Below are positions 3,886 to 18,509 of a stretch of 64,000 nt of DNA, in pieces. The notes beneath the pieces are model-generated. The model did not search any database. It saw only the letters and a list, made by a program, of their open reading frames with translations, and was not told the origin of the DNA. Position 1 is the stretch's first letter, and each line of letters begins with the position of its first letter. Position numbers and translations under genes: made by a program. The DNA comes from a virus. The stretch lies in the IMG/VR virus record IMGVR_UViG_3300043436_002865, positions 3,932 to 67,931 of that record; one strand, written 5' to 3'.

Positions 3886-4209
3886 ATGGATCTAACAAAC
3901 ATTGCTTCAGCAATTAATCAATACGGATTTCCGATTATAGCAGCTTTTGGGCTAGGATACTTTATATACTATATATGGACTTGGGTTACCCAAGAAGTTG
4001 ATCCGGTTGTAAATGAATCTCATATGACACTAATAGCTCTTATAGACAGAATACGAATGCTAGATAATGATATTATAAGATTAAATACAAAACTAAACAT
4101 GATTCTACAAGAACAAGAAAGAAAAAATAGAGGAGCAAACAATGAGAATACTGCTGATAGCGATACTAGCACTAGCCCCATTCAAAGCAATAGCTCAAGA
4201 AGCTTATAA
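3886..4209 (+). CDS. small single-pass membrane protein (GFPI motif plus coiled coil)
   Basis: YGFPIIAA TM segment, then IDRIRMLDNDIIRLN; paralogous to 1454..1732. Confidence 0.75.
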   Translation: MDLTNIASAINQYGFPIIAAFGLGYFIYYIWTWVTQEVDPVVNESHMTLIALIDRIRMLDNDIIRLNTKLNMILQEQERKNRGANNENTADSDTSTSPIQSNSSRSL

Positions 4210-13510: not shown

Positions 13511-13513
13511 ATA

Positions 13514-13613
13514 AGCGCTCGTCTCTCCGAGCTGTCACACCGATCCATAGAGCCGGAGCCAAGGATCACTTCACGCTAGTGTAACGTGGGTTAGACTCAT
13601 ATCACGTACTATC
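13514..13613 (-). ncRNA. candidate structured ncRNA
   Basis: Stems ACGTG/CACGT and GATCC/GGATC, terminal GCTCG-GAGAGA-CGAGC hairpin; GC-rich and non-coding. Confidence 0.45.
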
Positions 13614-13627
13614 CACAAATTAATAAC

Positions 13628-13712
13628 TGGATGGTCTGTGGACCTCGATGATACTATCATAACCGCATGAACATGTAAGTTACCTTACTTGCTTGGTTGC
13701 AGTATCCATCCA
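13628..13712 (-). ncRNA. candidate structured ncRNA
   Basis: 7-bp closing stem TGGATGG/CCATCCA and internal GTAAG-GTAA-CTTAC hairpin. Confidence 0.45.
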
Positions 13713-13723
13713 AATAGTATATA

Positions 13724-14185
13724 TCAGCTTTCAATCCAAGTCTTTACTTTTTCGCAGTGAGCCTTCCAAGGTTCTGCGTCGTACTCATAACGCTTACGCT
13801 CGTTGTTCCACTTCTTGCTCAGTTTATCAGCAGCAGGTCCATACTTGTTTATCATCTCGCAAACACGAGGAAGTATATGAGCACGAAGTACAGATGTATC
13901 ATTGCACTTATTCTCAACAGACTTATATGATTTGCCAGCGAGATAAGCACGAGCAAGGAAGGTAGCACGATTCTCGTTACGAACATCCCAACGACGATGG
14001 CGATTGAGCGAATTATAACTAATAAACGCTTTATCATGCCAGCGTGGGTATATGTCGTTGTGTCCAGCTTCTCTATATTTGCTGAGAGACCACTGATGCT
14101 GCTTGAGTAGCTTGCGCTCTTCAAAACGAATGATACGAGCTTCTTCTGAAAGGTGCTTTGATTTGATTTTTAGTTCTATAGACAT
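13724..14185 (-). CDS. basic hypothetical protein downstream of the amber leader
   Basis: 153 aa, Arg/Lys-rich; AAGGAG SD partly inside a hairpin. Confidence 0.85.
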   Translation of the reverse strand: MSIELKIKSKHLSEEARIIRFEERKLLKQHQWSLSKYREAGHNDIYPRWHDKAFISYNSLNRHRRWDVRNENRATFLARAYLAGKSYKSVENKCNDTSVLRAHILPRVCEMINKYGPAADKLSKKWNNERKRYEYDAEPWKAHCEKVKTWIES

Positions 14186-14193
14186 TATTTTCT

Positions 14194-14237
14194 CCTTGAT
14201 TAAGTTAATATAAATTATAATTAAGCTGTAATCAAGG
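14194..14237 (-). promoter_or_regulatory. SD-sequestering hairpin
   Basis: CCTTGATTA (14237-14229) is a perfect complement of TAATCAAGG (14202-14194), which includes AAGG of the SD. Confidence 0.75.
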
Positions 14238-14276
14238 TTAAGGTGGCTTTTTTATCTACGAATGAAACTCTTTCAT
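14238..14276 (-). CDS. leader mini-ORF with in-frame amber: MKEFHS*IKKPP*
   Basis: AGGGAG SD 8 nt before ATG AAA GAG TTT CAT TCG TAG ATA AAA AAG CCA CCT TAA. Confidence 0.7.
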
Positions 14277-14298
14277 TTGTAAGTCTCCCTCTTTTTGT

Positions 14299-14373
14299 TG
14301 GTGGTCCTAACAGGAATTGAACCTGCATTTCAGCGTTTTAGAGGCGCGTGCATAGCCATCATGCTCTAGGACC
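14299..14373 (-). tRNA. amber suppressor tRNA (CTA), atypical
   Basis: Acceptor GGTCCTA/TAGGACC, A73, CCA; D stem GCAT/ATGC; anticodon loop CTCTAAA; T arm GCAGG-TTCAATT-CCTGT; imperfect anticodon stem. Confidence 0.8.
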
Positions 14374-14383
14374 AGATTTATAC

Positions 14384-14434
14384 AGGATCATCTTTTTGCT
14401 ACATCCAAGCTTTTTTAGTTGCTGAACTGATCCT
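14384..14434 (-). ncRNA. candidate small stem-loop RNA
   Basis: AGGATCA/TGATCCT stem enclosing GTTCAGCAAC, A-tracts and GCT-TGGATGT-AGC. Confidence 0.4.
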
Positions 14435-14436
14435 AA

Positions 14437-14712
14437 AATACGGGATGCCCTATAGCCACCGCTACGCAGAAACTATTTTATTTCTTTTCACACCGACATC
14501 CAATGTGAAGATAGACTATTACTAATTTCGAGTTAATTCTCGATCAGATAGATTTACAACAGCCTAAGTCCTCTATCTTATCATCCTGATACAGGATGAA
14601 TAAAACTAATACGGTTTTTATCTACATCTTACCCTTGGGCTAACTTTCATACCGCAACTTAATCGAGCCAAGCAGCTTGCCAGTAGTAGACCGGACTTAA
14701 CCGAAAACCGGT
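14437..14712 (-). ncRNA. one or two candidate structured RNAs
   Basis: Non-coding; stems CGGTTTT/AAAACCG, TCTAC/GTAGA, GATAGA/TCTATC, TCGAG/CTCGA, TTCACA/TGTGAA, TCATCCTG/CAGGATGA. Confidence 0.4.
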
Positions 14713-14716
14713 AAAT

Positions 14717-15920: not shown

Positions 15921-16346
15921 CTATATAACTTGGTAAACTACTAGACCCAAGGATCGCCACATTTCCACGGAGTACGGGTTATCTTCGTACACGGCTACTG
16001 GATTATAACCTTTTTCTTTAATTCTTTCAATCATAATTCGTTTGACTTCCGCATTTTTTACATAACCGTCTTGCGGTTGTCTCATGAATAAATCGTGTGC
16101 GGGTACATTATGTTTCTCTAACCATTGTACAGTTAGGTTTCTGTATTGCTCTGGACGACCCGTACACAAAATAATATTGTGACCATCATTGTACAGAGCT
16201 TCTAGAACTGCTACTGAGGGCGGTATAGTAGGATCATTAACCAGCTCTTTATAGTGACTATCCCAATCTTTGCGCTCTTGATTTAAGTAGTGAGAACGGT
16301 GATTATCGTTACTTATAGTGCTGTCAATATCAAAAATAAAATCCAT
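15921..16346 (-). CDS. HAD-family phosphatase (like the PseT/PNKP 3'-phosphatase domain)
   Basis: FDIDSTI, CTGRPE, LFMR, YEDN and MWRSLG motifs. Confidence 0.85.
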   Translation of the reverse strand: MDFIFDIDSTISNDNHRSHYLNQERKDWDSHYKELVNDPTIPPSVAVLEALYNDGHNIILCTGRPEQYRNLTVQWLEKHNVPAHDLFMRQPQDGYVKNAEVKRIMIERIKEKGYNPVAVYEDNPYSVEMWRSLGLVVYQVI

Positions 16347-16455: not shown

Positions 16456-16546
16456 TGGTAGAAGTGGGTGGATTCGAACCACCTCAAAGGCGCTAATCTG
16501 GCGCAAAGAGCTTATAAGACTCCTCTGACTACCAAGTCTCACTTCC
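16456..16546 (-). tRNA. atypical tRNA with TAT anticodon (nominally Ile), short D arm, long variable arm
   Basis: GGAAGTG/CACTTCT acceptor, GGAGT-CTTATAA-GCTCT, T arm GGTGG-TTCGAAT-CCACC, CCA. Confidence 0.8.
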
Positions 16547-17859: not shown

Positions 17860-18183
17860 TTAGCTAGAGGGATCAGTATTTTTTAAGTATACAATTAGAG
17901 TTGTAAGTGCTTCTTTGGTTGAACCGTTAAATCCAGTAGTGTCGAATCCTACAAGTTCTTGAAGAGTGTTAAGCATTTCTTTTTTGGAAGGCCCATTCTT
18001 GCGATCTGGAAGCTTTTGAGGTGGGACGTATACGCCCTCTCTAACTAGCTTAGAGCGGACAGATCTAACCGGCTTGCCAAGTTGATCTGCAATATCCTCA
18101 ATTTTGTCTGTTCCTAGTTTGTGATATAGCTCAAGTAGTTGTTCTGTTTGTTCTTCTGTGTAATTTTGTTGTGCGGCTGTCAT
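17860..18183 (-). CDS. T5 A2/D5-like HTH DNA-binding protein
   Basis: YTEEQT...IADQLGKPVRSVRSKLVREGVY; related to 42334..42654 and the D5 repeats. Confidence 0.65.
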   Translation of the reverse strand: MTAAQQNYTEEQTEQLLELYHKLGTDKIEDIADQLGKPVRSVRSKLVREGVYVPPQKLPDRKNGPSKKEMLNTLQELVGFDTTGFNGSTKEALTTLIVYLKNTDPSS

Positions 18184-18211
18184 TTATGTACCCTCGTTAA
18201 AACATATTTAT

Positions 18212-18240
18212 ATATTAACCCATGTTTGAGCAGTGTGCAA
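18212..18240 (-). promoter_or_regulatory. sigma70-type promoter
   Basis: TTGCAC-N17-TAATAT. Confidence 0.6.
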
Positions 18241-18263
18241 GTATAATTTTCAAAAATAAAAAG

Positions 18264-18509
18264 TTAGTCATCAAAGTTGTGAGATCGCCTTACGTACAGA
18301 GGAGATAGCGTACCATCTCTAAATTCTAAAAAGCCTTGTGCACCATAGTCTGAAATAGCTTGATAGCCGCTATAGCTATCAGGGCAAGTAAACCATAGAT
18401 CAGTTTCAAACCCTAAACTAGTTTTCTTTTCTAGTACAAAGCCTTGTTCTGAGTAAGCTTCTACTGTGCTAGCAACCTCTTGAGTACCACAAGTTATTTT
18501 TATTAACAT
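18264..18509 (-). CDS. hypothetical protein
   Basis: 81 aa ORF within an operon. Confidence 0.65.
   Translation of the reverse strand: MLIKITCGTQEVASTVEAYSEQGFVLEKKTSLGFETDLWFTCPDSYSGYQAISDYGAQGFLEFRDGTLSPLYVRRSHNFDD

Follow-up and report, generated by a model that had tools for sequence, protein, structure and literature searches.

We analyzed a 64,000-nucleotide (nt) stretch of viral DNA, here termed the window, which corresponds to positions 3,932 to 67,931 of the IMG/VR record IMGVR_UViG_3300043436_002865 (67,931 bases, estimated 62% complete, G+C content ≈35%). The window harbors 13 tRNA genes called by ARAGORN, and the subject of this work is a compact module within this tRNA array in which a suppressor tRNA gene, a short leader interrupted by TAG, a hairpin over a Shine–Dalgarno (SD) sequence, and a gene for a 153-residue basic protein follow one another on the minus strand. 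An earlier note on this DNA had described these elements in this order and on this strand, and the sequence agrees with that description base for base.

The module opens with a tRNA gene (14299–14373; this and all module coordinates below are on the minus strand) that presents the anticodon CUA in a normal 7-nt loop (CTCTAAA), with A73 and an encoded CCA end; it is called by ARAGORN and scores 47 bits against the Rfam tRNA model (gathering score 29). A spacer of 22 nt leads to the leader, whose own SD (AGGGAG, 14285–14290) lies 8 nt 5′ of its ATG (14274–14276). Part 1 of the leader reads ATG AAA GAG TTT CAT TCG (MKEFHS; 14259–14276) and ends at a TAG (14256–14258), which we refer to as the test codon and which is followed by the codon ATA; part 2 (14238–14255) continues in frame with ATA AAA AAG CCA CCT (IKKPP; 14241–14255) and closes with TAA (14238–14240). 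The 5′ arm of the hairpin, the anti-SD sequence CCTTGATTA (14229–14237), begins directly 3′ of this TAA and 22 nt downstream of the T of the test TAG. It is separated by a loop containing inner A–U pairs and two promoter-like hexamer pairs (14203–14228) from the 3′ arm TAATCAAGG (14194–14202), which is complementary to CCTTGATTA and covers four bases of the SD of the downstream gene (AAGGAG, 14192–14197). The gene itself (13724–14185, with its ATG at 14185) encodes 153 amino acids with a predicted isoelectric point of 9.75, and its ATG lies 52 nt from the end of the leader. The RNA fold of 14180–14262 has a computed energy of −11.4 kcal/mol and includes the inner A–U pairs. As in arrest-peptide attenuators, a short upstream open reading frame (ORF) with its own SD thus precedes the regulated gene.

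The comparison across relatives is what marks this module as more than a chance arrangement. Loci were gathered by homology to the 153-residue protein alone, blind to the upstream DNA, and comprise 69 from viral contigs together with the best 80 of 115 relatives found in metagenome contigs. The gene start could be located in 149 of 150 sources, window included (L010 is the exception), and the 142 sources with at least 150 nt of upstream sequence yield 96 distinct upstream regions. Each region was parsed for a start codon, a first in-frame stop after 1 to 12 codons, and a CCN-CCN pair within 12 further codons containing no other stop; the pair was allowed in frame 0 or after skipping four bases, and the end had to lie 35 to 80 nt before the gene. 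This parse matches 87 of the 96 family regions, as compared to 9 of 346 other ORF starts from the same loci and 39 of 1920 shuffled family regions; when an SD and an ATG are also demanded, the matches number 81, 0, and 5, respectively. The family leaders are described by the pattern SD-start-(0–9 codons)-stop-(2–6 codons)-CCN-CCN, situated 35 to 80 nt 5′ of the gene. Curation removed spurious parses of L024 and L183, which are long-leader variants, and took the +1-frame parse for L180, resulting in 85 short leaders, 72 of a triplet type and 13 of a four-base type. The proteins fall into 82, 52, and 7 clusters at 90%, 70%, and 50% identity, and a curated short leader is present in 72, 43, and 5 of these, respectively. 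For an out-of-sample set, 26 representatives with a different N-terminus were aligned and the viral contigs rescanned, which added 30 new distinct upstream regions. The pattern is found in 29 of these (27 with TAG in frame 0, one with TGA in frame 0, and one, L347, whose match is probably a spurious reading of a long leader), and L327 has no leader. In all, over a hundred distant phages share the design.

Within the curated set, part 1 of the leader is variable both in length (1 to 10 codons, start included) and in sequence, and TAG, rather than TAA or TGA, is the test codon in every one of the 72 triplet-type leaders. In 48 of these leaders TAG is followed by A, in 21 by G, and in 3 by C; T never follows it. 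The ATA codon after TAG had been linked to a tRNA-Ile(TAT) nearby; this link is not supported, since ATA follows TAG in only 3 of 72 leaders and it is a purine at +4 that is kept instead. The Pro-Pro pair was a criterion of the parse, and all 85 curated leaders therefore contain it by design. All four wobble bases are used in both Pro codons (A 47, T 21, G 12, and C 5 in the first; T 34, A 20, C 19, and G 12 in the second), a basic residue (Arg, Lys, or His) occupies position −1 or −2 of Pro-Pro in 80 of 85 leaders, and the Arg codons in front of the pair are AGA (24), CGT (13), CGA (10), and CGC (5). Because Pro-Pro occurs with every wobble base and Arg is drawn from both codon families, selection appears to act on the amino acid, which points to translation past the stop and to protein-level selection on part 2.

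The commonest leader endings are IRPP (13 of 85), RSPP (8), RDPP (7), RAPP (6), RGPP (5), and KKPP (4), and the nascent peptides are 6 to 20 residues long. Polyproline C-termini are described as lowering termination efficiency the most, and the base after UAG as affecting recognition by release factor 1 (RF1) (PMC6412442). The earlier suggestion that Pro-Pro before a stop slows termination keeps a place in the window, where slow termination at KKPP-TAA may well contribute. It does not carry over to the family as a whole, in which a stop directly follows Pro-Pro in only 58 of 85 leaders and the basic residue is found in 80, a comparison that makes elongation arrest of the RxPP type likelier than slow termination alone.

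Hairpins were scored by their longest unbroken Watson–Crick helix, with one strand drawn from the Pro-Pro region plus 22 nt and the other from the 24 nt immediately preceding the gene ATG. The median helix is 7 bp in the family versus 4 bp in controls, and helices of at least 7 bp are present in 52 of 87 family regions versus 17 of 346 controls. The arms covary, with 67 distinct 3′ arms among 87 relatives. A statistic that asks whether the SD is paired in the minimum free energy structure does not separate the two groups (61 of 87 family regions versus 187 of 346 controls at a loose setting). A ribosome covers ≈13 nt past the first base of the codon in its A site. Of the curated loci, 71 have a helix of 6 bp or more. 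Counting from the first base of the test stop, the 5′ arm begins 14 nt or further downstream in 68 of them (median 24); counting from the first base of the second Pro codon, it begins within 13 nt in 69 (median 6). Taken together with the reach of the ribosome, these arm positions imply that a ribosome terminating at the test codon would leave the hairpin shut and that one held at Pro-Pro would open it. The window conforms to this geometry, with the gene SD predicted to be paired and the 5′ arm expected to lie under the footprint of a ribosome held at Pro-Pro.

A second line of evidence comes from the tRNAs. ARAGORN calls a CUA tRNA in 64 of 72 TAG-leader loci; it ends 90 to 130 nt before the gene ATG in 47 of them and 131 to 450 nt before it in 14, with one further upstream and two downstream. 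The 59 distinct CUA tRNAs form one family. In its alignment, 96.3% of cloverleaf cells are paired, versus 32 to 45% in slid controls, and compensatory changes occur in 18 of the 20 pairs. With this covariation-backed cloverleaf and a stop-complementary anticodon in a 7-nt loop, the window tRNA qualifies as a putative nonsense suppressor that would be charged and read UAG. All 61 distinct suppressors encode CCA, and their discriminator bases are A (47), G (12), T (1), and C (1). The loop-closing pair (31–39; alignment columns 34 and 42) is nonstandard in 24 of 59 tRNAs, that of the window included, and is C opposite A where read by eye; such an open pair may tune the strength of suppression. 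A strict classification of loops by three closing pairs failed, as many members of the family have an open loop-closing pair, and loop classes were assigned by ARAGORN calls and the covariance model.

Across relatives, the test codon and the reading frame of the leader change together with the anticodon loop, as expected from the coupling of tRNA and leader that the earlier note had put forward; the homologs likewise keep the features on which that proposal was built, namely the SD-ATG-(NNN)n-TAG-(NNN)m-CCN-CCN leader, the anti-SD hairpin, and the CTA tRNA. In an opal version of the module (L307:1318–1500), a tRNA of the same body type has the 7-nt loop CTTCAAA (anticodon UCA), the leader reads ML-TGA-VYAPP-TAA in frame 0, and the SD hairpin is present. 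The TGAA class comprises 10 leaders, all 10 of which reach Pro-Pro in the +1 frame after a TGA that reads TGAA (e.g., MN-TGAA-CRAPP, MT-TGAA-LIRAPP, and MKH-TGAA-FHNRGPP), with frame 0 meeting another stop at the second codon in 6 of 10. A tRNA with an N-UUUCAA-N loop accompanies 8 of these 10 loci (six by ARAGORN, L069 and L143 by the covariance model), and the remaining two contigs have just 205 and 249 nt of upstream sequence. The tRNA of L156 has a perfect 5-bp stem around the 8-nt loop ATTTCAAA, and those of L144, L067, and L175 pair best with 8-nt loops when read by eye. In the TAGA class, Pro-Pro lies in the +1 frame in all three leaders (L210, L180, and L066), and a UUCUAA-loop tRNA is found in all three loci. 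The UUCA and UCUA of these 8-nt loops are complementary to the TGAA and TAGA words, respectively, and loops that match their word at four bases are accompanied by Pro-Pro in the +1 frame. Conversely, tRNAs with the loop CCCCTAAN (L041, L060, L185, and L017; also GCCCTAAC) cannot pair with an A after TAG, and here Pro-Pro is in frame 0. By their four-base complementarity and the +1 continuation of the leader, the 8-nt-loop tRNAs of the relatives are candidate quadruplet decoders, which would read either four bases at once or three bases followed by a shift.

Several loci depart from the short-leader plan. Long leaders (L024:2704–2946, L205:892–1134, L214:165–407, and L183:903–1148) begin M-S-TAG-I-E, continue as a conserved protein of ≈80 residues, end in KVPP or DAPP plus a stop, and retain the hairpin. 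At least 539 members make up the family of this ≈80-residue protein, which has no match in Pfam or PHROG; only 8 of the 120 members listed end in PP. Its homologs often start MSQIE, MAQIE, or MTQIE, so that the TAG of the long leaders sits at the Gln position, a hint that Gln may be the residue inserted at UAG. In L039 and L148, a 62-residue upstream gene terminates at the TAG, and xxFKPP plus a stop then follows in frame; in L028, the TAG is present and the leader ends GPS-TAA; and in L066, the read-through frame closes on an ATGA that it shares with the start of the gene.

The module is also found in named phages. Synechococcus phage BUCT-ZZ01, which infects S. elongatus PCC 7942, encodes a tRNA with the loop CTCTAAA and a leader reading MGGDAS-TAG-INLKPP-TAA with the hairpin. 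Bacteriophage DSS3_MAL1 (no host in the record) has an annotated tRNA-Pyl, followed by MKS-TAG-IRPPP-TGA and the hairpin TCTCCTTGAT/ATCAAGGAGA. Phage NCTB (complete genome, 257,877 bases) has the leader MLNN-TGAA-CNRGPP... and, 2.6 kb upstream of it, a tRNA-like gene with the loop ATTTCAAC (LT598654.1 18499–18569; L222:1501–1571), which matches TGAA; this gene is the sole tRNA-like gene in NCTB at E ≤ 0.01 by the covariance model and is not called by ARAGORN. In the complete genome of BUCT-ZZ01, none of 10 TAG-ending long ORFs stays open in frame 0 for 40 or more codons past the TAG and no other read-through candidate was found, which leaves the leader as the only evident designed target of the suppressor in that phage. 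Read-through candidates in NCTB and DSS3_MAL1 are explained by neighboring genes or high G+C content.

The genetic code of the window is standard. The 70 nonoverlapping ORFs of at least 100 residues end in TAA (49), TGA (13), or TAG (8), and none of them requires TAG as a sense codon. TAG is thus in use as a stop and is not reassigned, and the in-frame TAG codons in conserved genes that characterize TAG-reassigned phages are absent from this record, which is 62% complete.

On these grounds, we consider it probable that the module is a translational attenuator of the arrest-peptide type, with a recoding tRNA encoded by the phage itself as its gate. One transcript probably carries both the tRNA(CUA) gene and the leader. 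Ribosomes would initiate at the leader SD and ATG and meet the TAG after six codons. If RF1 wins, the ribosome would leave with the 5′ arm out of its reach, the gene SD would stay paired, and the 153-residue protein would not be made. If the phage tRNA wins, I-K-K-P-P would be translated and the ribosome held at Pro-Pro, by slow peptide-bond formation of the RxPP type, by slow termination at Pro-Pro-TAA, or by both. The mRNA channel of the held ribosome would then cover the 5′ arm, free the SD, and allow translation of the gene, such that read-through corresponds to the ON state and the output reports the ratio of working (processed, charged, and delivered) suppressor tRNA to release factor. 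The core of the earlier proposal, that termination at TAG keeps the SD hairpin closed and that read-through opens it, is in this sense supported, as the comparative tests fit it.

Individual parts of this scheme have precedents. In the ErmCL/ermC, cat, and cmlA leaders, a ribosome stalled in a short leader opens an SD-sequestering hairpin; the input in those systems is an antibiotic in the exit tunnel, whereas here it would be stop-codon suppression. In prfB, which encodes RF2, an in-frame UGA and a +1 frameshift allow a placed stop to weigh termination against alternative decoding. The likeness lies in the deliberate stop that measures termination against an alternative; for the TGAA and TAGA relatives, this alternative likewise involves a +1 shift. 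In prfB, however, the stop is inside the regulated gene, slippage occurs in the P site with the aid of an internal SD, and the product is the sensed factor; here, the stop lies in a separate leader, a dedicated tRNA would decode it, and the product has no similarity to release factors by family, profile, or structure searches, and so the module is not of the prfB kind. A close parallel is to ApdA, ApdP, ApcA, and SecM-secA, in which a short upstream ORF ends in (basic)-x-Pro-Pro (PMC10951233, PMC12992588, PMC7897499). In the RAPP/RGPP arrest peptides, as described, a ribosome stalled on Pro codons in its P and A sites melts a hairpin over the next SD (PMC10951233, PMC12992588); a comparable hold would operate here. 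RAPP and RGPP are reported to arrest robustly in several contexts and to resist EF-P, with AAPP arrest-defective and the Arg critical (PMC12992588). The published arrest peptides are described as being released by secretion or insertion machinery that pulls on a long nascent chain. In the module described here, by contrast, access to the motif would be gated by a stop or four-base word that only the phage tRNA passes, the peptides are 6 to 20 residues long, the regulated gene is no localization factor, and the window motif is KKPP.

Other parallels concern the tRNA. Synthetic switches with a UAG in the leader likewise make expression depend on a suppressor tRNA; as described, these are engineered, act on transcription by unmasking a rut site, and use an unnatural amino acid (PMC6412442), whereas the present module is natural, predicted to be translational, and widespread. 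Laboratory +1 frameshift suppressors and quadruplet decoders (SufB2, sufJ, and evolved UAGN decoders) resemble the tRNAs of the TGAA and TAGA relatives, whose 8-nt loops complement the four-base words and whose motif lies in the +1 frame; the former are reported as mutants or engineered tRNAs, whereas the latter are natural tRNAs with a matched natural target, and the window tRNA, with its normal 7-nt loop, is unlike quadruplet-decoding tRNAs. Stop-recoded phages share a phage tRNA that reads a stop, and many of their late genes are described as needing it (10.1101/2021.08.26.457843); here, TAG keeps its standard meaning and no designed target other than the leader is evident. A eukaryotic neighbor is the reported read-through-coupled stalling on AMD1 (PMC13025110). 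Our literature search, with subscription journals and supplements outside its coverage, found no natural suppressor-tRNA-gated leader.

A number of observations weigh against this attenuator or limit its reach. The support is comparative: the anatomy, its conservation, the coding constraint behind the stop, and the covariation of leader and tRNA are shown, and shared transcription, charging, the hold at Pro-Pro, and the ON direction of read-through are inferred. Taken alone, the window hairpin is only modestly unusual and not convincing, with a z-score of −1.82 and 10 of 200 dinucleotide shuffles folding equally well or better. The window motif is KKPP rather than RAPP or RGPP, Arg is critical in published contexts, and K-K-P-P may be a weaker hold for a nascent chain of 12 residues; the KKPP-TAA ending fits a hold by slow termination at least as well as RxPP arrest. 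Five of 85 leaders have no basic residue before Pro-Pro, and 27 have no stop after it. Five loci (L054, L138, L173, L190, and L327) carry the gene with no leader, and gating is therefore not obligatory. A plain ARAGORN CUA tRNA is missing from the contig sequence of 8 of 72 TAG-leader loci, which instead show a CCCUAA-type loop (three), a CUCUAA loop (one), or none (four); in this last group, L060 and L207 have family-like tRNA matches by the covariance model, leaving L200 and L213 without an assigned tRNA. The frame cannot be read from an 8-nt loop alone, as CCCCTAAN and CCTCTAAC occur with frame 0, and L051, with the 8-nt loop CCTCTAAC and a frame-0 leader, breaks the four-base rule. The isotype of the 61 distinct suppressors, judged by the nearest ordinary tRNA, gives no consistent answer. 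Promoter-like hexamers within the window hairpin could yield a transcript that starts beyond the 5′ arm and lacks it. Finally, metatranscriptome contigs from four runs are relatives that are 85 to 97% alike over gene and tRNA, none of which spans the window leader, and two of which extend into the hairpin of a relative; these RNA-library contigs, which come from relatives, decide nothing, and because such libraries may contain DNA they do not show transcription.

The alternative that best withstands the data retains the gate and dispenses with a special arrest: read-through ribosomes would open the hairpin in passing, as in translational coupling, and Pro-Pro would tune dwell time or be a relic. 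The 58 leaders that stop right at the base of the hairpin, the ATGA overlap of the read-through frame with the gene start in L066, the KKPP motif of the window, and nascent chains of only 6 to 20 residues are what such coupling would look like. It accounts poorly for a Pro-Pro criterion passed by 87 of 96 upstream regions versus 9 of 346 controls, for the basic residue in 80 of 85 leaders, for the exact RAPP or RGPP in 11 of 85, and for the 27 leaders that lack a stop after Pro-Pro and in which the arm nevertheless begins within a few bases; we regard this reading as unlikely. It is decidedly improbable that the leader mainly senses host termination or proline elongation (RF1/RF2, EF-P, or Pro-tRNA), with the phage tRNA as one contributor. 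Read-through inherently depends on the ratio of tRNA to release factor, Pro-Pro stalls are EF-P-sensitive in general, and some loci show no suppressor tRNA in the contig sequence. On the other hand, the test word and frame follow the tRNA loop across four decoder types, which a pure release factor or EF-P sensor would not need, and the tRNA ends 90 to 130 nt before the gene in 47 of 64 loci.

We find it very hard to credit that there is no regulatory link at all, i.e., that the inverted repeat is a promoter, operator, or processing site and the mini-ORF a chance occurrence or relic. The window hairpin does contain two promoter-like pairs (TTAACC-16-TATAAT and TTGATT-17-TATATT), and the z-score of the window fold is only −1.82. 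Promoter-like sites are, however, not enriched (4 in the region versus 5.1 ± 2.6 expected from shuffles), the hexamers recur only in the near-identical hairpins of L011 and L017 (by eye, uncounted), the arms covary with free sequence (67 distinct), and the leader pattern separates family from controls (87 of 96 versus 9 of 346). That TAG is an ordinary sense codon of a reassigned code and the leader a small gene with one TAG deserves almost no credence: phages with TAG reassigned and their own suppressor tRNAs are described (preprint 10.1101/2021.08.26.457843), but 8 of 70 long window ORFs end in TAG and none needs it inside, 0 of 10 TAG-ending long ORFs of BUCT-ZZ01 stay open for 40 or more codons past it, and the single TAG holds a fixed place in the leader while the preceding residues vary.

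The protein whose gene would be gated by the attenuator has no match in Pfam, PHROG, or NCBIfam. A word-indexed search returned 987 relatives at E ≤ 0.001 among 997 candidates, all unnamed or annotated “hypothetical protein,” and a profile search of 1.84 billion cluster representatives (clusters at 50% identity) returned 3093 at E ≤ 0.001, 1977 at E ≤ 1e-10, and 81 at E ≤ 1e-30. The N-terminus MSIELKIK... and the second helix HRR..VRNENRAT.LAR are nearly invariant. The AlphaFold2 model (67-row alignment; pLDDT 92.1, pTM 0.80) predicts a long helical hairpin (residues 3–39 and 52–82), a third helix, and a small C-terminal part. The best PDB sequence profile match has E = 0.31, Foldseek returns no match in the PDB at E ≤ 0.001, and a wide VIA-align search, which effectively tested residues 1–86, finds generic helical hairpins at a best Z of 7.9, as is common for helical models. 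BFVD yields two matches, both uncharacterized phage proteins, and the ESM Atlas no usable match. A search for fused or longer forms gave one 333-residue protein on a 1320-nt contig, which is probably a miscall.

The earlier note had proposed that this protein acts on termination, tRNA charging, or anti-defense. No function can be assigned from the family and structure searches, and one version of that idea loses ground: the protein is kept alongside UAG, UGA, UGAA, and UAGA decoders alike, i.e., beside decoders of stops read by RF1 and by RF2, and an RF1-specific role, or action on any single release factor, is therefore unlikely. Our guess is that this basic helical-hairpin protein acts on tRNA, the ribosome, or ribosome rescue, either as feedback on recoding or as an effector licensed by recoding.

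The gene has no conserved downstream partner; an ORF lies within 400 nt in 57 of 96 loci, and the largest cluster has six members. Separately, an ORF of 190 to 229 residues is found 3′ of the gated gene in four loci (L067:3353–4039, L156:1553–2170, L168, and L060:3433–4002), three of which belong to the TGAA class; it overlaps the gene end by 11 nt in L067, L156, and L168, starts 81 nt after it in L060, and has a weak VWA-like Pfam match below the cut-off. DSS3_MAL1 also has, in the tRNA array that contains the module, a gene resembling peptidyl-tRNA hydrolase 2 (PTH2), 4.5 kb downstream of the module (18157–18429; L349:1501–1773). The TAG of this gene looks like an ordinary stop before the next gene, and a search for PTH2 found none in the window's record, BUCT-ZZ01, or NCTB.

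An extension that we hold tentatively, as possible without being our expectation, is that the leader serves as a self-test of the recoding tRNA (for UAG, UGA, UGAA, or UAGA), the success of which licenses a conserved effector acting on the translation apparatus (the tRNA pool, termination, or ribosome rescue) and thereby locks in or limits recoding. If this is true, the module would be a natural checkpoint for changing decoding rules during infection, and quadruplet decoding would have a dedicated physiological target. The attenuator itself, if correct, provides the suppressor tRNAs of standard-code phages, so far without a known target, with a concrete and conserved one, and gives arrest-peptide attenuators a new input, a stop codon that is or is not read through. 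The TGAA and TAGA relatives suggest natural four-base (+1) decoding as a genetic switch, a mode of decoding documented until now largely in laboratory suppressors and engineered tRNAs. The phage family headed by the gated protein is very large and uncharacterized (the 3093 representatives above), and the protein is situated inside phage tRNA arrays. Because the module is present in the cultured phages BUCT-ZZ01 and DSS3_MAL1, the idea is directly testable, and matched tRNA–leader pairs are natural orthogonal parts for synthetic biology.

Several further features of the window lie near the module. A PNK/phosphatase-like ORF (141 residues, 15921–16346, minus strand) ends in TAG, with 64 open in-frame codons beyond it to 15726; this ORF, the one read-through candidate in the window other than the leader, could be a second target of the suppressor tRNA and is carried by no relative among the collected loci. 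Two noncoding stretches of the tRNA array on the minus strand (14374–14716, ≈340 nt, and 13511–13723, ≈210 nt) contain no notable ORF and no Rfam match at E ≤ 1, and may be stable RNAs or processing spacers. An odd 91-nt tRNA at 16456–16546 (minus strand), called Ile(TAT), has a long variable arm and matches the Rfam tRNA-Sec model alone, weakly (31.2 bits versus a gathering score of 47). Near-identical DNA occurs in lake and freshwater metagenome runs, with 18 of the 24 listed runs containing at least half of the sampled words.

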